Under the pieces are notes generated by a model. The model worked only from the letters and a program-made list of their open reading frames with translations, did no database searches and was not told where the DNA came from. Shown here in pieces: positions 24,856 to 47,591 of a stretch of DNA of 47,591 nucleotides. The stretch lies in IMG/VR virus record IMGVR_UViG_3300045988_142058. One strand, 5' to 3'. Both the position numbers and the translations under genes were made by a program. This DNA comes from a virus. Its lineage: Duplodnaviria > Heunggongvirae > Uroviricota > Caudoviricetes. Every line of letters starts with the position of its first letter. The first letter of the stretch is position 1.

Positions 24856-25121
24856 TCATCATCTCCTGCCGCACATACAACCTCACAAAAAACATCAGCG
24901 GAATGTTTCTCCTTGAACGAATGACGCTCAAAACCGCACTCAATATCAGGCGCAAAAACATCCACCACATACGGTCTTTCAGAATGTTTGTTTTCCCAAC
25001 GATAAACCGTAGTGACGTTGAAATGTTTTAACGCTTCACGGAACTCAACGCTGCCCGTCAGGTTTTTTGAGGTCAGGTATTGCAGGAGGTTTTTTACTAC
25101 TTCACGGTCTTGTACTTTCAT
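24852..25121 (-). CDS. Hypothetical protein, first gene behind cassette copy 1
   Basis: 89 aa; ATG at 25121 preceded by cassette GGAG RBS. Confidence 0.45.
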   Translation of the reverse strand: MKVQDREVVKNLLQYLTSKNLTGSVEFREALKHFNVTTVYRWENKHSERPYVVDVFAPDIECGFERHSFKEKHSADVFCEVVCAAGDDE

Positions 25122-25230
25122 CGGGTTATCTCCGGTTTAACCAGGGCGGGTATCGCTCGGTTTCGGGTATAACCATAGGAAATTTTTTCCCACCTGTAAA
25201 GCACTTTTTATATAAATCTATAATTATATA
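25122..25230 (-). promoter_or_regulatory. Promoter-leader cassette copy 1
   Basis: ~109 bp near-identical to copies at 32043..32150 and 40979..41087; putative -35 TTTACA (25195..25200), -10 TATGGT (25172..25177), leader with GGAG RBS. Confidence 0.6.
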
Positions 25231-25233
25231 ATT

Positions 25234-26129: not shown

Positions 26130-26205
26130 TGGTGGCCCCTACCGGATTTGAACCGATGACCGTGCGATTATGAGTCGCCTGCTCTAACCACTGAGCTAAG
26201 GGGCC
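26130..26205 (-). tRNA. tRNA with CAU anticodon, tRNA-Ile2 (lysidine)-like, CCA encoded
   Basis: 76 nt cloverleaf GGCCCCUUAGCUCAGUGGUUAGAGCAGGCGACUCAUAAUCGC...GGUUCAAAUCCGGUAGGGGCCACCA; 7-bp acceptor stem; resembles E. coli ileX from memory; elongator Met not excluded. Confidence 0.8.
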
Positions 26206-30897: not shown

Positions 30898-30943
30898 TGT
30901 CGAGGCGTCCTTATACATTTATATAAATATATAATTCTATATA

Positions 30944-30974: not shown

Positions 30975-32042
30975 TCAGGCTTTCAATAGCGATTCTTTCA
31001 GATATCGGGCATCAGCCAGGGCATTTGGAGTAATCTTGCGAACCCATGCATTACGGGTTGGACTCCACTTAAAGGCGCGTGATTTAAGCAGCGAACGAAT
31101 GTTTGCCTCTGGTTTGCCAGGGAAATAAAACAGGATGCGGTTATCCTCTGGATCTATCTCCATAGAAAAGTCGTCGTATTCTTCGCGCTGTGCTCCTGTT
31201 ACAGACTTGACCGATTCAAGCTCCTTAATACGGCTCTGTAGTCGTTTGATCTCGGCGTTATTGTTGCTCAGTGCGTATGAAGGGAATCCGATGCGCCCAC
31301 AGAAATCTCCGGCCAGTAACTCTTTGGCTTCGCTTTCTGTAAACCTGAGATCGATTAATGCAGAAAGCTGCTGTAATTGGTCTTTTTTGTATTTGCGAAT
31401 GGCCTTATTTGCGGCCTTCATTTTGACGTGTGACTTCATGCAGCCTTGCAGCTTACGAAGCAACTTAAATAGCGCATCAGGATCATCAGACGAAATTCCA
31501 TTACGACCAACACCTGCGGCTTTGCTCTCGTAGTGTGATGCTTTACTTTCGCATTCAACAAACGCTTTTCTGAATAACGCATCAGCTTTAGACAAACGGC
31601 GGCGATGGCCTTTCGCGCTATAATGGTCAACTAAAATCGGCTGGCCTAACGGGATCACATCCAACAGGTCATGCGCTCGCTTATGCGCTACCGCACCTTC
31701 TTTTCTGGCTTTTTCTGCACGAGCAATATATCGGGCAAGACGCGCGTTCTGGCGTTCCTGATAGGTGTTTACGTAATCATCTCCGCGCTGCTGCTGTTCA
31801 AGCCATGCTTTACGCAGATCTTCTGTTACGTCCACCAGCTCCGCAGGGATACAACCAGTTTGGGCTTCATAAGAGTAACCATCCTCATAGATACGCCCAT
31901 CGTCTTCAACAAAGAAAAAGGTTTCGTGCTCATCGCTTTTGACCATACGACCATTAACATGGCGTAATAGGTAGCCAGTATCAGTGCTTAACAGGCTGTT
32001 AGGGTTGTTGATCCAGTCAGAAATAATTACTTGTTTATTCAT
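30975..32042 (-). CDS. DUF3560-like protein, first gene behind cassette copy 2
   Basis: 355 aa; start at cassette RBS; family call from memory only. Confidence 0.4.
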   Translation of the reverse strand: MNKQVIISDWINNPNSLLSTDTGYLLRHVNGRMVKSDEHETFFFVEDDGRIYEDGYSYEAQTGCIPAELVDVTEDLRKAWLEQQQRGDDYVNTYQERQNARLARYIARAEKARKEGAVAHKRAHDLLDVIPLGQPILVDHYSAKGHRRRLSKADALFRKAFVECESKASHYESKAAGVGRNGISSDDPDALFKLLRKLQGCMKSHVKMKAANKAIRKYKKDQLQQLSALIDLRFTESEAKELLAGDFCGRIGFPSYALSNNNAEIKRLQSRIKELESVKSVTGAQREEYDDFSMEIDPEDNRILFYFPGKPEANIRSLLKSRAFKWSPTRNAWVRKITPNALADARYLKESLLKA

Positions 32043-32150
32043 CAGATTTCTCCGGTTTAACCAGGGCGGGTATCGCTCGGTTTCGGGTATAACCTTAGGA
32101 AATTTTTTCCCACCTGTAAAGCACTTTTTATATAAATCTATAATTATATA
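32043..32150 (-). promoter_or_regulatory. Promoter-leader cassette copy 2
   Basis: Differs from copy 1 at -10 (TAAGGT) and in ~8 nt next to ATG; lies between Q-like gene and lysis-containing operon. Confidence 0.6.
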
Positions 32151-32211
32151 TTTATAGATTTTCGATGTTCCCGATGTCTACACACCATCAAAACAGCTCA
32201 AAATGACACTT

Positions 32212-33559: not shown

Positions 33560-34071
33560 TGATGGCCCCCGTCATTTCTGGTGCTTTTCACCGTGCGGCT
33601 TCTTAAAAACCTGCCATCACGAACAACAGACACTTCTCGTTTACCCAACCTCATTTCACGGCGGTAACATTCAGAAAATGCCTCGTCCGGCATCATATAA
33701 ATGCGACGCTTCGCCTCCGTATCCAGAAGGGAACGGCTTGGGGTTACATATAAGAACGACTCATCAATAGGGACAAAACCACGAGCAAGAATTGCTGGCA
33801 GAATACCAGGAAGAACGCAGAAAACAGCTCCACGATGCAGCAACATCTGGTACTCCATGACCTCCGTAATCCCCGTAACGACTGTTACGGTGTCACGTCT
33901 GTTACGGCTGGCAACCAGTCGCTGCACACCTCCAATTTTCTGCTCTACAGATAGACGTTTGCTATCGTTATCAATATGATCGATAACAAATCCTTTAATC
34001 GTTTGATCAAGGTAGTGCACCACCTGCGATTGAATCTGGTGATTATCACCAAAGAAGGCCAGAATCATCAT
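33556..34071 (-). CDS. Hypothetical protein
   Basis: 171 aa, second gene of Cro-side operon. Confidence 0.35.
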   Translation of the reverse strand: MMILAFFGDNHQIQSQVVHYLDQTIKGFVIDHIDNDSKRLSVEQKIGGVQRLVASRNRRDTVTVVTGITEVMEYQMLLHRGAVFCVLPGILPAILARGFVPIDESFLYVTPSRSLLDTEAKRRIYMMPDEAFSECYRREMRLGKREVSVVRDGRFLRSRTVKSTRNDGGHQ

Positions 34072-34562
34072 TCCTCAAGCCTCCCAAGTGCTGAACGCCG
34101 GGCGTTGCTAATCTCCTTATGAATCAGCTCGATATCGCTGGAATCTTTATTCTTAAGCTCCAGCACAGTAATCGCATCACGAACCTCTGAAACGGTTACG
34201 TGTGAGTGTTTCCAGCGAGCAATGAATCGCGGACCGCGTAGATTGCAACGCTCCGCAGGCATCCCCAGCTCAGAGAAAACCGCTTTCAGCCTTGATAAGC
34301 AGTTAACAGGGAGATTCCCTTTGATCTTGTTCTGCCGAACCGATGTGCCATCGCTACGCTGGCGCTGACGCTCGGCAAAATCTGCCGCCCATTGCTGGAC
34401 GTTAATCCGGCCTTCCGAATACGCCACCAGCAGCGTCAGGTTATCCGCACGAGGGAATCTCTCGAAGCGATACCAGGCACCAATCAGTGATGACGTAAAG
34501 CCAAACTTTCTGGCAACACCAATTTGGCCTCCATTTTCGTCAACCCACTCCTGAAAGGTCAT
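34068..34562 (-). CDS. Cro-like regulator (HTH N-terminus with ~100 aa extension)
   Basis: 164 aa; divergent from CI-like gene across operator region. Confidence 0.5.
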   Translation of the reverse strand: MTFQEWVDENGGQIGVARKFGFTSSLIGAWYRFERFPRADNLTLLVAYSEGRINVQQWAADFAERQRQRSDGTSVRQNKIKGNLPVNCLSRLKAVFSELGMPAERCNLRGPRFIARWKHSHVTVSEVRDAITVLELKNKDSSDIELIHKEISNARRSALGRLEE

Positions 34563-34581
34563 TTAACGAACTCCAGTTAAA

Positions 34582-34596
34582 ACCACGATATGTGGT
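34582..34596. promoter_or_regulatory. Operator ACCAC-gatat-GTGGT in cI/cro intergenic region
   Basis: Perfect inverted half-sites, 5-bp spacer. Confidence 0.6.
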
Positions 34597-34602
34597 ATTA
34601 AA

Positions 34603-34617
34603 ACCACATATCGTGAG
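34603..34617. promoter_or_regulatory. Degenerate operator ACCAC-atatc-GTGAG
   Basis: Adjacent to first operator; right half imperfect. Confidence 0.4.
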
Positions 34618-34684
34618 TTTTTCAATGGGCGAAACAAAAAATAACCTTCTATTTGTGGTCCACCTCTCGTCTTACCATGTGAAA

Positions 34685-34699
34685 ACCACTAAATGTGGT
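34685..34699. promoter_or_regulatory. Operator ACCAC-taaat-GTGGT near cI start
   Basis: Perfect half-sites, 38 bp upstream of cI ATG. Confidence 0.6.
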
Positions 34700-34736
34700 A
34701 ATGTATAAATAACCCACCATTCACGATTGATGAGAC

Positions 34737-35393
34737 ATGAAAAGCAACGACGAGAACATCAAGAAAGAAATAGGTCTGCGCATTCAGACTCTACGGAAAC
34801 AATCCGGCATGACTGCCGGAGATCTCCAGCAAGTCACTGGAATAGGCTTAAGCACCTTGCAGAACTATGAGGCCGGATTAAGACAACCATCTATACCTGC
34901 CATCAAGAAAATCGCGCACGCCCTGAAAGCATCAGCGCCTTATATCGCGTGCTTAACAGATAACCCGTTCCCACCCCAGAATACTAACGCTCCTGTTATT
35001 CCTGGGCTTGTAGCTATAAAAAATGACATAGCATCGCACGCCGGAGAAAAGCCAGTGCTGGCGATAGAACAGGAGATTCTACGAAGCAAGAACATCAACC
35101 CATCGTCTCTGTCAGTTCTCCAGAGCAACGATGAGTTAATGTCACCAACAATATCCCCTGGCTCCCAAGTCCTGATTAATACAGACGATACAGAGATTCA
35201 TGAGGGGATCTATGCCCTTGAAGACAGAAATGGCCTGGTTGTTTTGAGGCACTGTAGAGTCATACCGGGTGACAATGCTGTTATGCTGTCAACCGAAAGG
35301 GATGCTGAAATGAACACTAAGCATCTGAATAACGAGGAATTTAAGCGTTATAAAGTTCTGGGCCGCGTAGTTAGTGTTGTCAACTGGTTATGA
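34737..35393 (+). CDS. CI-like repressor (HTH + LexA/S24-like C-terminal domain)
   Basis: 218 aa; N-terminal HTH (LRKQSGMTAGDLQQVTGIGLSTLQNYEAG); C-terminal S24-like fold. Confidence 0.8.
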   Translation: MKSNDENIKKEIGLRIQTLRKQSGMTAGDLQQVTGIGLSTLQNYEAGLRQPSIPAIKKIAHALKASAPYIACLTDNPFPPQNTNAPVIPGLVAIKNDIASHAGEKPVLAIEQEILRSKNINPSSLSVLQSNDELMSPTISPGSQVLINTDDTEIHEGIYALEDRNGLVVLRHCRVIPGDNAVMLSTERDAEMNTKHLNNEEFKRYKVLGRVVSVVNWL

Positions 35394-35435
35394 TACACAG
35401 CACGGCGAAAGCCGTGCATTTCTACGCTCAAAAAA

Positions 35436-35450
35436 ACCACATTTTGTGGT
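35436..35450. promoter_or_regulatory. Operator-like ACCAC-atttt-GTGGT downstream of cI
   Basis: Perfect half-sites; after hairpin 35401..35416; could also act as weak terminator. Confidence 0.45.
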
Positions 35451-35485: not shown

Positions 35486-35860
35486 ATGGAATTACATACA
35501 GCCAATAAAAACGAAACTCTGATCACTGCTGGAATCGAAATCCAAGCGTTGAACATAGCGATTGAGTGTATGTTATGCCAAATCATTGATAATGAGAAAG
35601 ATATCGACTGGATATCATCTACCCTTCATCTTGCTTACGAGCAAAAAGCCTGCCTCAAAACAGCCTTACAATACGATGTGCCTTCTGTATCAAAGCTGTG
35701 CCAGTCATTGATGGCATATAACAGAGCTATCATTTCTGTATGCCTCATGATTCTCGATGAGAATACCCCTCTTAGCGACCGCTCAGAAGCAGCTCTAACC
35801 CTCTCACGTAAACAGCGACAGCTAGCAAATCAACTGATATCAACGATAGCTGACCTCTGA
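35486..35860 (+). CDS. Hypothetical protein downstream of repressor
   Basis: 124 aa, AAGAGG RBS; operator-like site D upstream. Confidence 0.4.
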   Translation: MELHTANKNETLITAGIEIQALNIAIECMLCQIIDNEKDIDWISSTLHLAYEQKACLKTALQYDVPSVSKLCQSLMAYNRAIISVCLMILDENTPLSDRSEAALTLSRKQRQLANQLISTIADL

Positions 35861-35864
35861 CTGC

Positions 35865-35884
35865 AAGCGGGCTAACGCCCGCTT
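35865..35884 (+). terminator. Hairpin terminator after gene 35486..35860
   Basis: 8-bp stem AAGCGGGC/GCCCGCTT, loop TAAC, then AU-rich sequence. Confidence 0.4.
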
Positions 35885-36010
35885 ATATGATTATAGTTTT
35901 ATATAATTATATAAAACGCTTTTCATCCGCCAAAAAGTTGGTTATGCTTACCTCGTTCTATAAATATAGATTTATAGAATTATATAACCAAACACATGGA
36001 GTCTCGACAA

Positions 36011-36664
36011 ATGACTATCTCTGTAGGTATTTTCAACGGAAAAGGCGGCGTAACCAAATCAACAATTGCCCGTGCTTTAGCAGTTGCTTATGCAAAGGCT
36101 GGCTGGAATGTATGCCTGATCGATATGGATGTGCTTAACGGAACGGTAACGCGTTGGGTACAACGCAGAATGGCCAACAATATCGAACCAGCAATCGCGG
36201 CGCAGCCGTGCGGCACACCATCACAAGTCCAGAAAATCATCGAATCAGAAGTATACGACCTGGTTATCGTCGATGGCGGTGCCTACGCATCTGAATCAGT
36301 ACCGAAGCTCTCTGAATTTCTGGATATGGTTATTTTGCCAACCAGATTCTCTACCGATGACCTGGAAACCACCGTTAACACAGCTCATGGCATCGTTAAA
36401 AAGGGTGTGCCAATCAAGAAAATTTGCATGGTGTTCTCAGGCGCGGCTGAAAACGAAGCCGACTACATTGAAGCCCAAGAGTACCTGGCTAATACGCCAT
36501 ACTTTGTTGTCGATAAGTACATTCCCCACAAGCCAGCTCTGAGCAAAGCTCAGGATAAGGGCTTAAGCCTCATTGAGTGCTCATACGTTGCGCCACGCAA
36601 AAAGGCAGACGACGTTATTCAGGGGATTATCAACCAGCTTGAGGCTCTGACTACTGCCGCGTAA
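36011..36664 (+). CDS. parA: ParA-like partition ATPase (small, type Ib-like)
   Basis: Deviant Walker A FNGKGGVTKST; start at second ATG with GGAG RBS. Confidence 0.8.
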   Translation: MTISVGIFNGKGGVTKSTIARALAVAYAKAGWNVCLIDMDVLNGTVTRWVQRRMANNIEPAIAAQPCGTPSQVQKIIESEVYDLVIVDGGAYASESVPKLSEFLDMVILPTRFSTDDLETTVNTAHGIVKKGVPIKKICMVFSGAAENEADYIEAQEYLANTPYFVVDKYIPHKPALSKAQDKGLSLIECSYVAPRKKADDVIQGIINQLEALTTAA

Positions 36665-36707
36665 TATATAATTATAGTTTTATAGATTTATATAAGAGGG
36701 TATACAC

Positions 36708-37178: not shown

Positions 37179-37200
37179 AAAAAAGGCCCCCGAAGGGGCC
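37179..37200 (-). terminator. Intrinsic terminator for small-peptide transcript
   Basis: GGCCCC-cgaa-GGGGCC followed on minus RNA by UUUUUU; 7 nt after peptide stop. Confidence 0.6.
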
Positions 37201-37206
37201 TAATCG

Positions 37207-37329
37207 CTACTTGCTGCTAATGTTTATCGTCACATTCAGAGCGTTATCAGTAATCTTCCAACCCTCCCCATGTGGCGTAAACAAAGCTCCAGTAACAACG
37301 ATAAAAATACACATACAGTATTTTTTCAT
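37207..37329 (-). CDS. Small hydrophobic peptide (40 aa), candidate type I toxin
   Basis: MKKYCMCIFIVVTGALFTPHGEGW...; AAGGG RBS; intrinsic terminator immediately after stop; upstream leader carries 15-nt antisense target. Confidence 0.4.
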   Translation of the reverse strand: MKKYCMCIFIVVTGALFTPHGEGWKITDNALNVTINISSK

Positions 37330-37622
37330 TGTATGGCCCTTACAGGCCGTTTCACGGCATCCCCACCGACGAAAACAACGCGAGAGCAAGCACGGCTGCT
37401 TGTGCTTGCATGTACGGCAACAGGAAATCCTCCCCTAAAGTCGGTGCCCGGGTGCGAATCGGCGGGAAGGTCCACAGGTATTTTACGATTATTTTAAGAT
37501 TAGTAATAGGAAAGAAATTAAACGAAAAAAACAGTTTATTTTCACAAAATCAGTAACCTACCCACAATCTGTGAGTTTGCTGACACAACAAGAACCACAA
37601 TTTTTTGATGTATAATAGTGGA

Positions 37623-37753
37623 CTATTATTACCTTTTGAGTAAAATCAATTTGCTGCTTGTGCTTGCGTGGTTGTTTATACAACAACGTAATGCTGAAAG
37701 GACCGCGAATCCGATCAGCACGAAAGAACCGTCCTCAATAGGGCGGTTTTTTT
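37623..37753 (+). ncRNA. Candidate ~130 nt small RNA (antitoxin-like)
   Basis: TATAAT -10 at 37611..37616; intrinsic terminator at 37728..37753; contains GCTGCTTGTGCTTGC (37653..37667). Confidence 0.4.
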
Positions 37754-37772
37754 GTTTCTGCCTACCAATAAA

Positions 37773-37787
37773 CCCACGCTATGTGGT
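37773..37787. promoter_or_regulatory. Near-operator CCCAC-gctat-GTGGT in antirepressor leader
   Basis: One mismatch to consensus; between sRNA terminator and ant operon. Confidence 0.3.
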
Positions 37788-37900
37788 TGTCTCTGTTAAA
37801 ATCCCGCCGTATTGACATGAATGCGCCATTGGTGGACACTTTCCGAGCCGTAGCAAAATCTACGGTCGGGATTAGCCTCCTGAATAACACGATGGCGCAT

Positions 37901-37921
37901 ACCGCGTTAGCGGTTTTTTTA
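37901..37921 (+). terminator. Second intrinsic terminator in antirepressor leader
   Basis: ACCGC-gtta-GCGGT followed by TTTTTTT. Confidence 0.45.
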
Positions 37922-38082
37922 TGCGTAGAGCACTGTTACGCCCAAATTATGGTGGGTCGTACAGGGGCGGAGAAATCCGCGCCGGTTCGTCATTGTGTCC
38001 GGTAAGGCTAACCCTGTACGGCTCACCACCATTTGATTAGCCTCGAATGGCGGTGATAGTTCCATATACTGGAGATATCACA

Positions 38083-38274
38083 ATGACAAACCTACCCCAT
38101 GACTATTACGTCAACCTCGTAAAGATCCTTCTCAAGAAAGCCTCATACGCCGATAAATTCCGCCTGGCTGAAATCATCGAGCGCGAAGCTATGCGCATCG
38201 CCAGCAACGATAACGCTGTTTCTGACGCAAAAATCTCCCTCGTAACCAAAGTAGTTATGGGAGGTGCAAAATGA
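38083..38274 (+). CDS. Hypothetical small protein upstream of antirepressor
   Basis: 63 aa, GGAGA RBS, stop overlaps antirepressor ATG. Confidence 0.4.
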   Translation: MTNLPHDYYVNLVKILLKKASYADKFRLAEIIEREAMRIASNDNAVSDAKISLVTKVVMGGAK

Positions 38275-39452
38275 AAACGCTTCCGACCGTTAACACCCTA
38301 CAGCCTATCCTGCATAACCAGCTCCCCGTTATCACTACTGAACTACTGGCGCAATTGTATGGAACCGAGCGCCAACGTCTGACAAACAATTTCAATAGAA
38401 ACAAGGAACGTTTTATAGAAGGTAAACACTTTTTTAGGATAGAAGGTAAAGAGTTACGAGAGTTGAAGAACAAAAACTCTTTAAGAGTTCCTGTGAGAGT
38501 AGTTAACGAACCATCTTTAAGAGGGTTACAAATTCCCCCGAAAGTTCGCTCCCTCATCCTCTGGACAGAACGCGGGGCTGCACGTCACGCCAAAATGCTT
38601 GAAACTAACCAAGCGTGGGATGTGTTCGAACGGCTGGAAGACTGCTATTTCAACCAGAACGCACAAACGGCCGCGACCGTTACCGTCTCGCCAAGCAATG
38701 CTCGTGAGGTTGTCGATACGCTCAACGCCAAACCGATGTTTTACATTAAGGTGTGCAATAACGAGCCACTCACAACCTCAGCCGATGTTGCCCAGGCATT
38801 CAGCACCACAAACAATTCCATCGTTATGGCCATCGATGCGTTACGCATTCCTCGCACAGCTGCGGCGCGTCATTTCTTTAAAGAGCAACGACCGTTGGAA
38901 GGAAGCGACCGCGAAATAACAATCTATCGCATGACAAAAGACGGATTTACCTTGCTCATGGAGAGCATCGACGGTCCAAGCGTGAAAGATATCAAGCTGG
39001 CCTACATTGAAGCCTTTAACGCTATCAGCAGCGTGTTAAAAACACAGTACGAGCGTGATCTGGCTAAACGACTGTACCAAGAAAAAACGATTATCCGCGC
39101 GGCAACAGAGCATAATCGGCTATTAACGGAACCGAACTACAGGAAGGAACTAATCAAGGAGTTTGACAAGGCAACAGGGAAAACCAAAGCGGCGCTAAAT
39201 CTGCCAGCAATGACTCAGGAAAATGTGATATCAGCCTTACTTCTTGATCTGCTCAGAAACGCCAGAGCACTTATCAGCTTTGACGAAAACCTGAATCCTC
39301 AGCTCAAGCTACTACCACCGACAGGCAAAGTAGTCGACCAAGCTGATCACAACAGCATACTCAGCGTACTGGATGCAAACCTGCCAGCCAAGACACTACA
39401 GGATCTGATAAAAACATGTGCTGATAAGCTGGCACAGAAAAGCAGACCATAA
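38271..39452 (+). CDS. Antirepressor (ORF6N/ANT N-terminus, Rha-like C-terminus)
   Basis: 393 aa; N-terminal LPVITTELLAQLYGTERQRLTNNFNRNKERF; terminator after stop. Confidence 0.75.
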   Translation: MKTLPTVNTLQPILHNQLPVITTELLAQLYGTERQRLTNNFNRNKERFIEGKHFFRIEGKELRELKNKNSLRVPVRVVNEPSLRGLQIPPKVRSLILWTERGAARHAKMLETNQAWDVFERLEDCYFNQNAQTAATVTVSPSNAREVVDTLNAKPMFYIKVCNNEPLTTSADVAQAFSTTNNSIVMAIDALRIPRTAAARHFFKEQRPLEGSDREITIYRMTKDGFTLLMESIDGPSVKDIKLAYIEAFNAISSVLKTQYERDLAKRLYQEKTIIRAATEHNRLLTEPNYRKELIKEFDKATGKTKAALNLPAMTQENVISALLLDLLRNARALISFDENLNPQLKLLPPTGKVVDQADHNSILSVLDANLPAKTLQDLIKTCADKLAQKSRP

Positions 39453-40597: not shown

Positions 40598-40978
40598 TTA
40601 CTTAACGAGGAATAAAAATGGTTTATTGTTCGGCGGTGTAATCGGGGCTGGCTCGCTTTTGCTCATGCGATCAGTGTACCAAGCCAACTCCTTGTCAAAG
40701 TAAGCCTGATTAAAATAGGCCATGAATGTAGTTTCAAATCCATAACGACCGCTAATACGCAGCATCTGATTGCCGTTCTCTGTTTCCAGATATACCTGGG
40801 CACGTTCCTGATTCTCCTTCAGCCAGGTTAAAGCCTCATCGCATGAGGACACACGATACTCATCATCGTAGCCGTCATCGATGCGGCTTGAGGAAGAACG
40901 GCAAATCACGCCAACAGAACCAGCCAGGATAGTTTGAATTTTAAGGAAAGCGTTTTTGCGGATTTTAATCATGCTCAT
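40598..40978 (-). CDS. Hypothetical protein, first gene behind cassette copy 3
   Basis: 126 aa; ATG at 40978 preceded by cassette RBS. Confidence 0.45.
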   Translation of the reverse strand: MSMIKIRKNAFLKIQTILAGSVGVICRSSSSRIDDGYDDEYRVSSCDEALTWLKENQERAQVYLETENGNQMLRISGRYGFETTFMAYFNQAYFDKELAWYTDRMSKSEPAPITPPNNKPFLFLVK

Positions 40979-41087
40979 CGGGTTATCTCCGGTTTAACCA
41001 GGGCGGGTATCGCTCGGTTTCGGGTATAACCTTAGGAAATTTTTTCCCACCTGTAAAGCACTTTTTATATAAATCTATAATTATATA
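40979..41087 (-). promoter_or_regulatory. Promoter-leader cassette copy 3
   Basis: One substitution relative to copy 1; heads operon 40598..40978 plus HTH gene. Confidence 0.6.
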
Positions 41088-41245
41088 AATAATAGTAACT
41101 GGTGTTTTTTTAGGCGAAGCATTAAACATTTTTGTTTAGCTTATTGGCAAGGTCTTGAAAAAGACATTTCAGCAATGCTATACCATTGAACATGGTATCG
41201 GCTGAATTTTGTAATTAACACATTTTAAACAATTTGAGGTGCCAA

Positions 41246-42210: not shown

Positions 42211-42243
42211 GCTCAATCCTATAACCTGTAGTTTATATCACTA

Positions 42244-42272
42244 ACCATATAACCTGTGAGTTATAATTTCAA
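42244..42272 (-). promoter_or_regulatory. higBA promoter with direct-repeat operator
   Basis: -35 TTGAAA (42267..42272), 17-bp spacer, -10 TATGGT (42244..42249); ACAGGTTATA repeats at 42221..42229 and 42249..42257. Confidence 0.45.
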
Positions 42273-43041: not shown

Positions 43042-43089
43042 TTATTATATCTACGATGGTAGGAAATCTTTTCCTATGTGGCAATAGAA

Positions 43090-43674: not shown

Positions 43675-44523
43675 TTAATGTTGGAGTGATTTCCAGGTCT
43701 TTCTTAACCTGTTATAACGCTGCTCAACGAGGGATCGTAAATATGCAAGGTCAGCTCCAGGATACATGCCATCAGCAAATTCCTGGCTAACCTCTCTAGT
43801 GATTTGATGACGAAGTTCGGCCTCTCCCTTTTCCCGAACAAGACGCGCAGCTCTCTCCGCTGCTTTCTGTTTTGCCTTTATCTCTCTGGCCGTCTTCCTC
43901 TGACGCCATACATTCTCCATCTGCTCCTGAATAACAATACGCTTATAATCAGCCTCCGTTATCGCTTTTTTAAGCCGTTCGCTATTCTTCGCATTGAAGT
44001 AATTAAGTTTCTGGCTAACCGCACGTCTCCATGCTTGTTCAGTAATACCAACGGTTTCCAGCAGTTGATCACGAATCTCTATTTTCGCTGGCCAATACTG
44101 TTTATTCACCCGATCCCAGCGACGTTCATAATCAATAAAACCTAACTCTTTCAGTTGCGACAACGCCCTTGTACAGCGCGTTATAGACTTGTTCCCAGCT
44201 TCGGATACGGTAGACAGGCCGCAAAAATCAGCCAACGCCTCAGCACTGGCCAGAACCCGCTTAGAAATGATGTTTACATGGTGCAAAATCGCAGCAATCA
44301 CAGCATTAATTGCCCGACGACGATGCTCGTTTATCCGGCGTTTCCGCTCTGACGGTTGATTAACGTAGAACGCAACCTCACACGTAAGATCACGACCATT
44401 AATGCGCTGTAAAGCATCAGATAACACCAGCGGCAGCTTGTGCGTATGGTGCTTTGGAGGCTGGAACTCCGGCGACAAATTACAAACGTAAGCTGAACGT
44501 AGAGACGGCATTGGTCTATCCAT
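43675..44523 (-). CDS. repA: Replication initiator RepA, IncFII RepA1-like
   Basis: ATG at 44523 (MDRPMPSLRS...); block ...ALADFCGLSTVSEAGNKSITRCTRALSQLKELGFIDY... matches IncFII RepA1 pattern CGL-T-S-AG--SITR-TRAL--L-ELG-I-Y (from memory). Frame open upstream to 44685. Confidence 0.8.
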   Translation of the reverse strand: MDRPMPSLRSAYVCNLSPEFQPPKHHTHKLPLVLSDALQRINGRDLTCEVAFYVNQPSERKRRINEHRRRAINAVIAAILHHVNIISKRVLASAEALADFCGLSTVSEAGNKSITRCTRALSQLKELGFIDYERRWDRVNKQYWPAKIEIRDQLLETVGITEQAWRRAVSQKLNYFNAKNSERLKKAITEADYKRIVIQEQMENVWRQRKTAREIKAKQKAAERAARLVREKGEAELRHQITREVSQEFADGMYPGADLAYLRSLVEQRYNRLRKTWKSLQH

Positions 44524-44535
44524 ATGTTCGCTCTT

Positions 44536-44650
44536 GCGTCCACGGAAAACCAACGTATAATGGGAGTTGTCGAGGCGCCCATGGATATGTTTGTTGGTTT
44601 TCCGTGGATGTCGCAAGAAGCCCGCAGATTTATCTGCGGGCTTTTTGTTT
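44536..44650 (+). ncRNA. Candidate CopA-like antisense RNA in repA leader
   Basis: Plus-strand intrinsic terminator (9-bp stem 44620..44628/44633..44641 + TTTTTGTTT) antisense to repA leader; 16-bp stem-loop 44539..44608. 5' end not defined. Confidence 0.4.
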
Positions 44651-44690
44651 CCATATCTGGTCGTTTTCCAACCAGACACCCACAATCGTA

Positions 44691-44705
44691 ACCACGTTAC
44701 GTGGT
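44691..44705. promoter_or_regulatory. Operator-type ACCAC-gttac-GTGGT in repA leader
   Basis: Same half-sites and spacing as immunity operators; ~100 nt downstream of putative repA promoter. Confidence 0.5.
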
Positions 44706-46668: not shown

Positions 46669-47591
46669 TAAATAACCTCAGCCATTTGTTGGTCTGTTAA
46701 TGCTTTATGCCATATTCTGAAATTCCTGATATGACCAAATAGATGACGTGCCCCTGATGTGGTTTGACCTCCTATTCTAATAAAGGTCCGCGTTTTTACG
46801 CCCGTCCATTCCGTTTCAATGGTTTTAGTAGCCTCACCGTTAGAAACTACTCGTTTAGTACCGTCAGAATAAATATTAAAACCACCAATGAATTTTCGAA
46901 CATCCGTTCGACCAGTAAACAAACTAGAAACGTAACTACTTGTCGACGCTTTATAAGTTTGCATATAAAGCTGACCGTAATATCTCTCGGTTGTGTTAAA
47001 AGCGTATGTGATTGACTCAATAGGCGGCACACCAGAAAAATCAAAAATACGCGGTGCTACATTAGGGGGAATATCGCCCCAATTCCTGTTAACCTCGACC
47101 AAACAAGTAAGCGGTCTGTTATAAATGTTGTTTTCGGTCGGGATCGTAACCATATCACTCGCACGAGTCGCCGCCGTCGTTCCTGATATAATAAAAGATG
47201 ATACACAAGGCCCATTTTCTACTTGTGGGGTGGCCAGATAAATATAGTCACCAGATACGGTTGCCCCGCCCTGCTTAGGAGAATACTGTATCTGAGAACC
47301 TATTTTTAACTCCCCATCAATTGCCTGAATTGTTGCCTCAGCAAAAATCCATCCTGTAGTTTCATCCTTCCTGACTCGTGCCGTAATTCTACCGGAAGCA
47401 CCACCTGTCATATTAATTTCAAGCGTTTGTGTATCAATATACGCATCACCAAGAAAAGTTGTTGCGCTACCGTCATACTTATCAAACCGTATACGTAACC
47501 TTACCTGTCGTTCTGTTTTAAAACGGCATGAGGTTGTCACGTACTTGTTATCGCCTGAGACATCAACTGACTTTGTTGCAGCAATTGATGC
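46668..47591 (-). CDS. Tail fibre protein, C-terminal portion (same gene as 1..1517)
   Basis: Same reading frame as 1..1517 across the 62-bp junction; complete gene ~2379 nt (~792 aa). Confidence 0.7.
   Translation of the reverse strand, partial: ASIAATKSVDVSGDNKYVTTSCRFKTERQVRLRIRFDKYDGSATTFLGDAYIDTQTLEINMTGGASGRITARVRKDETTGWIFAEATIQAIDGELKIGSQIQYSPKQGGATVSGDYIYLATPQVENGPCVSSFIISGTTAATRASDMVTIPTENNIYNRPLTCLVEVNRNWGDIPPNVAPRIFDFSGVPPIESITYAFNTTERYYGQLYMQTYKASTSSYVSSLFTGRTDVRKFIGGFNIYSDGTKRVVSNGEATKTIETEWTGVKTRTFIRIGGQTTSGARHLFGHIRNFRIWHKALTDQQMAEVI
47530..47591. repeat. 62-bp terminal redundancy identical to 1..62 (circular closure)
   Basis: Exact identity of the two window ends. Confidence 0.95.

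Follow-up and report, generated by a model that had tools for sequence, protein, structure and literature searches.

Dispersed palindromes as probable operators of a prophage repressor in the immunity and replication regions of an IncFII-type phage-plasmid

The IMG/VR virus record IMGVR_UViG_3300045988_142058, a stretch of 47,591 nucleotides that was analysed in full and is referred to here as the window, carries an immunity region in which the gene for a 218-amino-acid (aa) helix-turn-helix (HTH) prophage repressor (34737-35393) and the first gene of a leftward early operon diverge from a common intergenic gap. We report that palindromes of the form ACCAC-N5-GTGGT, present in this gap and at more distant places that include the region upstream of the replication gene repA, are very likely the operators of this repressor, with six sites at which its dimers would bind, a reading based on the number, symmetry, position and conservation of the sites. 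The full set is assigned to the repressor by analogy with the phages phiKO2 and N15, in which the repressor CB binds all of the sites, those at repA among them, and Cro binds only one (PMC4997575); the Cro-like N-terminal domain of the 164-aa early protein probably binds some of the sites as well. Judged from the sequence, the protein that keeps the virus silent probably also sets the copy number of the plasmid.

A rare palindrome at six places in the genome

The perfect palindrome ACCAC-N5-GTGGT occurs exactly four times in the genome, at 34582-34596, 34685-34699, 35436-35450 and 44691-44705, against a chance expectation of 0.03 obtained from 100 dinucleotide-preserving shuffles, none of which reached four (0/100). 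This count bears out a first-pass annotation of the same letters, which had counted four perfect sites and put the number expected by chance at ~0.05. When all 5-Ng-5 palindromes were ranked (g = 0-10, ~11,000 classes), the motif came fourth (p ~3e-8 before correction), behind three palindromes that belong to a separate AT-rich system described below. Its flanks widen the motif to AAAACCAC-N5-GTGGTTTT, the half-sites lie one helical turn apart, and all of the sites are two-fold symmetric.

To this count we added a position weight matrix (PWM) that was trained on relatives only and then run on the whole genome, with 30 shuffles as a control. The matrix recovers exactly six genome sites, which score between 18.4 and 30.7, the next match reaching 12.5 and the shuffle maximum being 15.1. 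A degenerate site that the first-pass annotation had placed at 34603-34617 is one of the six: it has two mismatches here, and in most relatives its CCAC-N5-GTGG core is perfect, with the outer right half weaker in all of them. The sixth site, at 37773-37787 (CCCACGCTATGTGGT), has a perfect 4+4 core and had been overlooked. The sites are as follows.

O1, 34582-34596: perfect operator ACCACGATATGTGGT; PWM score 30.0; lies on the putative leftward early promoter, at about -6 to +9; core kept in 8/9 relatives
O1b, 34603-34617: ACCACATATCGTGAG, with a weak right half (2 mismatches); PWM score 22.9; fills the 17-bp spacer of the leftward promoter
O2, 34685-34699: perfect operator ACCACTAAATGTGGT; PWM score 22.7; overlaps the extended -10 element of the repressor gene; both half-sites invariant in 9/9 sequences
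O3, 35436-35450: perfect operator ACCACATTTTGTGGT; PWM score 30.7, the best; core invariant in 9/9 sequences
O5, 37773-37787: CCCACGCTATGTGGT; PWM score 18.4; ~20 bp past a terminator and 25 bp upstream of a -35 element, TTGACA (37812-37817)
O4, 44691-44705: perfect operator, ACCACGTAACGTGGT on the minus strand; PWM score 24.8; ~180 bp ahead of repA, which starts at 44511

The cores of the palindromes are conserved in relatives

Relatives were drawn from a protein collection, IMG/VR and PLSDB, and their records are circular. Repressors that are 60-66% identical to the one studied here come from Citrobacter, Klebsiella aerogenes, Yokenella, Salmonella and further assemblies, in which the gene order is the same; a scan of species-representative genomes yielded no confirmed repressor relatives. 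In nine aligned sequences the CCAC/GTGG cores of O1, O1b, O2 and O3 hardly change at all, and the differences fall in the central 5 bp and the surroundings; at O4, upstream of repA, the core is likewise kept and the spacer varies. When the columns are pooled, 35/40 core columns are invariant, compared with 182/537 in other non-coding sequence and 4/25 in the N5 spacers, which gives Fisher p = 2e-11 and 9e-9, respectively, in a test that counts the alignment columns of related sequences as independent. This footprint in the DNA is matched by one in the protein, since repressor residues 9-73, including the helix GIGLSTLQNYEAG, are almost invariant among proteins that are only 60-66% identical overall.

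The arrangement extends to more distant relatives. Serratia plasmids of 44-47 kb and IMG/VR contigs encode repressors that are 29-36% identical, mostly ~30%, in which the STLQNYE helix is kept, and these carry ACYAC-N5-GTRGT sites at the same places, among them two just past the terminator of the repressor gene and one ahead of repA. In Vibrio phages the helix reads S-R-W-Q/L-N-W-E, yet TTTGTGG-type half-sites are still there.

Probable operators coincide with putative promoters between the divergent genes

As the first-pass annotation had proposed, several of the sites lie between the divergent genes: O1, O1b and O2 all fall within the ~174-bp gap (34562 to 34737) that separates the gene at 34068-34562 (minus strand) from the repressor gene at 34737-35393 (plus strand), a layout kept in 9/9 aligned relatives. 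In the alignments, they fall on conserved motifs that read as -35/-10 or extended -10 elements.

Putative early (lytic) promoter PL, minus strand: -35 TTGAAA at 34625-34620, a 17-bp spacer and -10 TTTAAT at 34602-34597; predicted start ~34590
Orphan half-site GTGGT, 34656-34660: between O1b and O2, in the block CTTCTnTTYGTGGTT; invariant alignment columns
Putative repressor promoter, 34696-34704, plus strand: extended -10 TGgTAATGT; predicted start ~34711

The TTG of the PL -35 element and its -10 block are kept in relatives, with the same layout in the Serratia relative L031, and in every relative the centres of O1 and O1b are 21 bp apart. At the repressor promoter, the TG is invariant in the alignment, as are four positions of the hexamer (T, A, A and the last T), and no -35 element is recognisable. 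A consensus promoter scan called none of the operator-overlapping promoters in the immunity region; PL and the repressor promoter are proposed from the aligned motifs. With repressor bound, O1 and O1b, which lie two helical turns apart, would bracket the PL -10 element and thereby keep the early/lytic operon off in a lysogen, and O2, at -26 to -12 of the repressor promoter, would provide negative autoregulation. The first-pass designation of the palindromes as immunity operators is well supported, if indirectly, being in line with what the sequence would be expected to show if they serve the adjacent repressor.

The repressor and the leftward early protein

The two proteins encoded on either side of the gap are both candidate readers of these sites.

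Immunity repressor, 34737-35393, plus strand: 218 aa, N-terminal HTH_3 domain and weakly S24-like C-terminal domain
First gene of the leftward early operon, 34068-34562, minus strand: 164 aa, Cro/YdaS-like N-terminal ~66 residues and an unassigned C-terminal domain

The repressor matches HTH_3 in Pfam (E 4.5e-11), with a predicted local distance difference test score (pLDDT) of ~90 for residues 10-60, and from end to end it aligns with families of phage repressors (phrog_4, transcriptional repressor, E 1e-26). For its C-terminal part, Peptidase_S24 scores 18.4 bits against a cut-off of 23.3, hhalign, by which the profile of the repressor family was compared with LexA and lambda CI, aligned nothing in the C-terminal domain, and sequence searches of the PDB returned HTH domains only. 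The AlphaFold model has a mean pLDDT of 55.5 and is poor outside the HTH, with values below 50 in the C-terminal domain. A MAFFT alignment, approximate at this low identity, places Glu133 and Arg171 at the positions of the Ser/Lys dyad. Because the S24 match is sub-threshold, the dyad is apparently absent, no LexA boxes were found when these were sought near the antirepressor operon, and neither mitomycin C nor ciprofloxacin induced the family element (bioRxiv 10.64898/2026.08.19.745698), we read the repressor as probably non-cleavable and inactivated via an antirepressor module. Induction would then go through the antirepressor, the repressor seeming unable to cleave itself. Calling the gene 'CI-like', as the first-pass annotation had done, is apt for the HTH and the overall architecture of the protein and does not extend to the C-terminal domain, with its sub-threshold S24 match and seeming lack of the Ser/Lys dyad.

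In its first ~66 residues the 164-aa protein shares homology (E 1e-9 and 3e-8) with small proteins that Vibrio and Aliivibrio phages encode leftward, next to homologous repressors. The Aliivibrio protein in turn matches YdaS (5e-7), its 29.9 bits falling just short of the cut-off of 30, and P22_Cro (4e-4). The 164-aa protein itself gave no direct match in Pfam, NCBIfam or the PDB, and its AlphaFold model is poor (mean pLDDT 56.2), with no match at E <= 0.001 in one fold search. The earlier label 'Cro-like' is therefore carried by transitive homology and, at the level of sequence, is reasonable for the N-terminal domain only. Vibrio phages were tried as a means of separating the repressor from the Cro-like protein; their leftward genes proved to be homologous to the N-terminus of the 164-aa protein.

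A probable operator upstream of the IncFII-type repA gene

The replicon site of the first-pass annotation is real, and its position upstream of an IncFII-type repA gene is kept. This site, O4, lies 9.3 kb from the repressor gene among the following features.

repA, 43675-44511, minus strand: IncFII-type replication initiator, 278 aa; start set by agreement with relatives
Putative repA promoter P2, 44715-44723, minus strand: extended -10 TGgTAGAGT; O4 lies nine bases downstream
repA promoter P1, 44812-44839, minus strand: TTGACT-16-TATGAT, 10/12 matches; ~300 nt upstream of the ATG at 44511
CopA-like antisense RNA, 44536-44655, plus strand: long stem-loop and terminator opposite the repA leader

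RepA matches NF040977 (RepA_IncFII_LM, E 4.5e-69, 233 bits against a cut-off of 70), and PF02387 is matched in relatives; RefSeq annotates a 326-aa RepA that starts from a non-conserved ATG at 44655. O4 occupies approximately +4 to +18 of P2, lies ~100 nt downstream of P1, and is kept in the Citrobacter and Salmonella relatives and partly in those from Serratia. The TG and TAGAGT of P2 are invariant in 6/6 aligned sequences, including Serratia relatives with ~33%-identical repressors, from which we infer that P2 functions as a promoter, and P1 was called as strong by the promoter scan and is conserved in relatives.

Opposite the repA leader, plus-strand sequence at 44530-44660 folds strongly (-69.7 kcal/mol, z = -9.5), without an Rfam CopA match at the gathering or E <= 1 thresholds. 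Copy-up mutations have been mapped to CopA loop II, 58-86 nt upstream of repA (bioRxiv 10.64898/2026.08.19.745698), and the folded antisense strand agrees with the CopA that this preprint assigned genetically. Between P1 and repA there is no CopB-sized open reading frame (ORF), and the only ORFs there are chance ones of <=37 aa that overlap the operator, with ~100 nt between P1 and O4.

Bound at O4, the repressor would shut off P2 and present a roadblock to transcription from P1. Repression at O4 would in this way form the transcriptional arm of copy control, which is CopB's role in classical IncFII plasmids, and the CopA-like RNA would form the translational arm. We consider it an even chance that O4 represses repA transcription. 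A broader model can be put forward more tentatively, as somewhat less probable than its opposite: the prophage repressor would have replaced CopB, with O4 holding P2 off in the lysogen and being freed in a repressor-free cell, upon infection or through the antirepressor; lysogeny, copy number and the dosage of cargo such as blaTEM-1 would depend on one protein; and O3 and O5 would insulate the partition and antirepressor units. One of 15 high-copy mutants carried only a single-nucleotide polymorphism (SNP) in 'a potential transcriptional regulator' (bioRxiv 10.64898/2026.08.19.745698), and under the same model this heteroresistant mutant would be a repressor mutant.

Two further features of the region were seen in passing. 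GATC pairs between P1 and P2 (44740-44810; GAGATCCGATTTAGATCC) are kept as pairs in all relatives despite differing surroundings, which suggests Dam/SeqA-sensitive control of the replicon. On the minus strand at 44540-44580, the repA leader contains an invariant stretch, CATGGGCGCCTCGACAACTCCCATTATACGTTGG, that may specify a short Tap-type leader peptide (MGASTTPIIRW...), Tap being used in IncFII replicons for translational coupling.

O3 and O5 follow terminators

The perfect site that had been noted after the repressor gene starts at 35436, ~20 bp beyond a terminator hairpin.

Terminator-like hairpin after the repressor gene, 35400-35424, plus strand: GCACGGC-GAAA-GCCGTGC (35400-35417), then a T-rich tail

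This hairpin is kept in all relatives, where its T-run is better. O3 is flanked by the repressor terminator on one side and by orf124 (35486-35860), with parA (35996-36664) next in line, on the other, and is 0.75-0.85 kb away from O1/O2; neither the promoter scan nor the alignment of relatives revealed a convincing or conserved promoter overlapping it. O5 precedes the isrK / C4 RNA / antirepressor operon, the TTGACA -35 element of which is conserved, and its position is kept as CCACAATGYGTGA in three relatives (L005, L007 and L008). In this operon isrK lies at 37847-37920 and C4 RNA at 37945-38033 (Rfam 70.8 bits against a gathering score of 45), and antirepressor families match 38271-39452 (393 aa). 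O3 and O5 would act as roadblocks or insulators for the orf124-parA side and the antirepressor operon, respectively, or as auxiliary sites for looping. Their specific role is the part of the scheme of which we are least certain, with confidence below that for O4.

Around O3 (35420-35450) and O5 (37729-37787) alike, an intrinsic terminator is followed after ~20 bp by an operator, an arrangement that is kept in relatives and suggests repressor roadblocks that back up terminators, as opposed to promoter occlusion. A weak operator-like site at 37561-37575 (PWM score 9.7) lies upstream of an insertion at 37611-37760 that is absent from L005, L007 and L008. The insertion has a perfect TATAAT (37611-37616) after TG, ends with an intrinsic terminator at ~37729-37756, and looks like a ~140-nt small RNA gene. 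Together, 37179-38033 and 38271-39452 form a secondary immunity region resembling that of P1 immI, which also contains a 63-codon ORF. A ryfA-type RNA (37179-37475, minus strand, 143 bits) is found here with a small hydrophobic ORF that may be a type I toxin.

Alternative explanations for the palindromes

The palindromes might be read mainly by another protein, the candidate being the 164-aa Cro/YdaS-like protein, with the CI-like repressor recognising a different sequence. Even in Vibrio and Aliivibrio phages, the Cro-like domain, the repressor and GTGG-type half-sites are found together, and in PY54 and phiKO2 the site specificities of Cro and CB differ (PMC4997575). However, the ~174-bp divergent region holds no other repeated palindrome, and invariance of the repressor HTH goes exactly together with invariance of the operator cores. 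Sites at repA, past the repressor gene and at the antirepressor operon would suit a protein that maintains lysogeny better than one that acts early in the lytic cycle, and in phiKO2 and N15 the replicon sites are bound by CB and not by Cro (PMC4997575). We regard a different principal reader as unlikely.

Two other explanations were weighed. The pair O1/O1b could be an RNA hairpin in the early-operon leader that works as an intrinsic terminator or attenuator, with no protein bound there, and a terminator scan indeed finds a 13-14-bp stem with a T-run on both strands at 34583-34616. In relatives, however, those stem positions located within the N5 spacers are for the most part unpaired (in 7/9, 6/9, 7/9 and 3/9 sequences), covariation is no better than in shuffles (178/500 reach the observed score), and the half-sites alone are conserved; the same half-sites recur at O2-O5 as isolated palindromes that are unable to form this hairpin, and the predicted PL transcript starts inside it. 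We have rejected the hairpin as a by-product of two adjacent palindromes and give it almost no credence. Nor do we find it at all probable, though marginally less remote, that the sites serve plasmid maintenance, as parS repeats for the ParA/small ParG-like system, as RepA iterons or as DnaA-type host-factor sites. In its favour, one site precedes the orf124-parA region, another precedes repA, and the plasmid has a type Ib-like ParA. Against this, three of the six sites lie in the repressor/early divergent region, where they overlap promoter elements, and the region upstream of parA and the parA-parG gap hold a different clustered palindrome, the AT-rich TTATA-N6-TATAA, with the look expected of a type Ib centromere/operator. 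Compared by eye with the DnaA box TTATCCACA, the sites match at only 6-7/9 positions. To our knowledge, IncFII replicons use no iterons.

Several points weigh against the assignment of the sites to the repressor, or against parts of the scheme built on it. Every relative recovered, down to ~30% identity, keeps the S-T-L-Q-N-Y-E recognition helix, which leaves no co-variation of helix and operator to compare, and the repressor and the Cro-like protein occur together everywhere, so that association in sequence cannot separate the two readers. The independence of columns assumed in the footprint statistics tells in the same direction. With respect to promoters, PL was missed by the scan because position 2 of its -10 element, TTTAAT, is not the A that is usual there, and the other two, the repressor promoter and P2, are read from extended -10 matches only; no recognisable promoter overlaps O3, and the -35 element that follows O5 is downstream of it, so neither fits simple promoter occlusion. 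As to the replicon, CopA/CopT copy-up mutations left the repA transcript level unchanged, and the preprint that describes them names no gene for the mutated regulator (bioRxiv 10.64898/2026.08.19.745698). Set beside the invariance of the cores, the recovery of all six sites by a matrix trained on relatives and the position of the sites, these points leave the 218-aa repressor as the reader that we favour.

Comparison with known immunity systems

The system is of a known kind, that of a prophage repressor whose operators also govern a plasmid replicon, in a family without previously described operators. The immB system of N15, phiKO2 and PY54 is the closest functional match. In N15 and phiKO2, CB binds three OR sites, which lie between repressor and cro, as well as two OL sites at the repA promoter and lowers copy number, and it is without self-cleavage residues (PMC4997575). 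There, and by prediction here, a repressor without LexA-type cleavage residues is accompanied by several operators between divergent repressor and early genes, one protein sets immunity and copy number, and induction goes via an antirepressor (PMC4997575). An operator at the repA promoter is likewise shared, at the sequence level only in the present case, where O4 lies 9 nt past an invariant TGnTAGAGT. The operator itself is different, 15-bp ACCAC-N5-GTGGT here and 16-bp T-A-(N)10-T-A in the N15 type. Unlike the linear, telomere-bearing N15 type, the genome studied here has a circular IncFII-type replicon with a CopA-like antisense RNA and a single replicon operator, an extra site at the isrK/C4/antirepressor operon, a contractile tail, and a first early protein of 164 aa with an extra domain. 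When the repressor was compared by tblastn with 50,697 phage records (E <= 1e-8), matches were found in Yersinia, Vibrio and Aliivibrio phages and in one Parageobacillus phage, and N15, phiKO2 and PY54 were not among them. In homology, operator type, replicon type and topology, the system therefore stands outside the immB group.

In a lambda-type switch, an HTH repressor acts on palindromic operators with half-sites one turn apart, with tandem sites on divergent promoters and OL beyond the repressor gene. Like lambda, 434 and P22, the present system has an HTH repressor, tandem palindromic sites and a further site past the repressor gene that could allow looping. Unlike lambda, it has no recognisable active S24 peptidase in the C-terminal domain and its family shows no SOS induction, the site at the repressor promoter is in a repressing (-26 to -12) and not an activating position, and the operators are dispersed over 10 kb, replication and antirepressor loci included.

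Phage P1 also has scattered operators, those of C1, and in its immI region a repressor site precedes a C4-type antisense RNA, after which comes an antirepressor; C1 belongs to a different protein family, has an asymmetric 17-bp site and controls the lytic replicon, not the plasmid RepA. The genome studied here resembles P1 in being a circular contractile-tailed phage-plasmid with scattered operators and with C4 RNA and an antirepressor downstream of a repressor site, and differs in its HTH_3 repressor and in having only six sites, all of them palindromic. With the IncFII plasmids R1 and NR1 it shares an IncFII-family RepA and, by prediction, a pair of promoters of which the proximal one is repressible and a structured antisense RNA opposite the leader, in loop II of which copy-up mutations fall; unlike them, it has no CopB gene between P1 and repA, and the O4 palindrome stands in place of the CopB operator.

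The genome and its family

The window closes on itself, positions 1-62 being identical to 47530-47591 (an assembly overlap), which gives a circular genome of 47,529 bp. It encodes contractile-tail genes, a small ParA, the IncFII-type RepA and toxin-antitoxin genes. Its immunity region is 98-99% identical to that of 58 non-mobilizable plasmids of 46-52 kb, nearly all from E. coli, and three unannotated 'Yersinia phages' (vB_YpM_39/41/44) are also close to it. The genome matches a complete circular phage-plasmid of the E. coli 'p-p47' family, which was described in an August 2026 preprint (bioRxiv 10.64898/2026.08.19.745698). Among 5,426 complete E. coli genomes, the immunity region is present in 70 (~1.3%), including the reference strain ATCC 25922. 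The preprint attributes piperacillin-tazobactam heteroresistance to rises in p-p47 copy number, covers the CopA/CopT arm of copy control only and nowhere mentions a repressor or an operator (bioRxiv 10.64898/2026.08.19.745698).

Within the repressor gene, a 33-nt stretch (35000-35032) is a 100% match to a chromosomal CRISPR array of E. coli GMF054 (NZ_CM183924.1), and a host spacer therefore targets the phage-plasmid. A tRNA gene at 26133-26205 (minus strand, Rfam 67 bits) has a counterpart annotated as tRNA-Met at the homologous position of Yersinia phage vB_YpM_41. The Serratia sp. plasmid pJSRIV006_2 (L030) combines the same early/immunity/partition/IncFII replication backbone with a lambda-like siphovirus tail and a different head module, and in the studied genome this backbone is coupled to a contractile tail; the plasmid-immunity module is evidently exchanged between different virion types.

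A second dispersed set of palindromes

The AT-rich system that outranks the ACCAC sites is also the more abundant one. A 114-nt cassette is present three times (25118-25231, 32038-32151 and 40975-41088), 91-100% identical and directly upstream of leftward genes, among them a DUF3560 gene that starts at 32042. On its minus strand the cassette carries AT-rich palindromes, TTATA-N6-TATAA, of which there are nine copies genome-wide, and a promoter-like motif, TTTACA-17-TAAGGT, with a TAGGAAA-N3-TTTCC palindrome in the spacer. The system also appears at 30911-30940, 35883-35990, 36665-36706, 42220-42260 and 43062-43078, and the same palindromes cluster upstream of parA and between parA and a small parG-like gene. 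In distant relatives the palindrome is altered yet dispersed, as TAAAG-N4-CTTTA (L023), ATATA-N2-TATAT (L024/26) or TAAATATTTA (L030). These palindromes may therefore form a co-varying regulon under a different protein, for which the ParG-like protein of 82 aa is a possible candidate.

Implications

Specialists would expect operators in such an immunity region, and the link to repA has a precedent in N15; the family in which they are found here is common, clinically relevant and newly described, and blaTEM-1 can be among its cargo. The operator motif can be used to annotate relatives in Citrobacter, Salmonella, Klebsiella, Yokenella and Serratia, and the SNP of the published high-copy mutant, in an unnamed 'transcriptional regulator', provides a lead for the link between repressor and repA. 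Taken together, the operator set and the predicted repressor-repA link offer a testable model of how these phage-plasmids may remain silent, why DNA damage does not induce them, and how lysogeny and copy number may be coupled.

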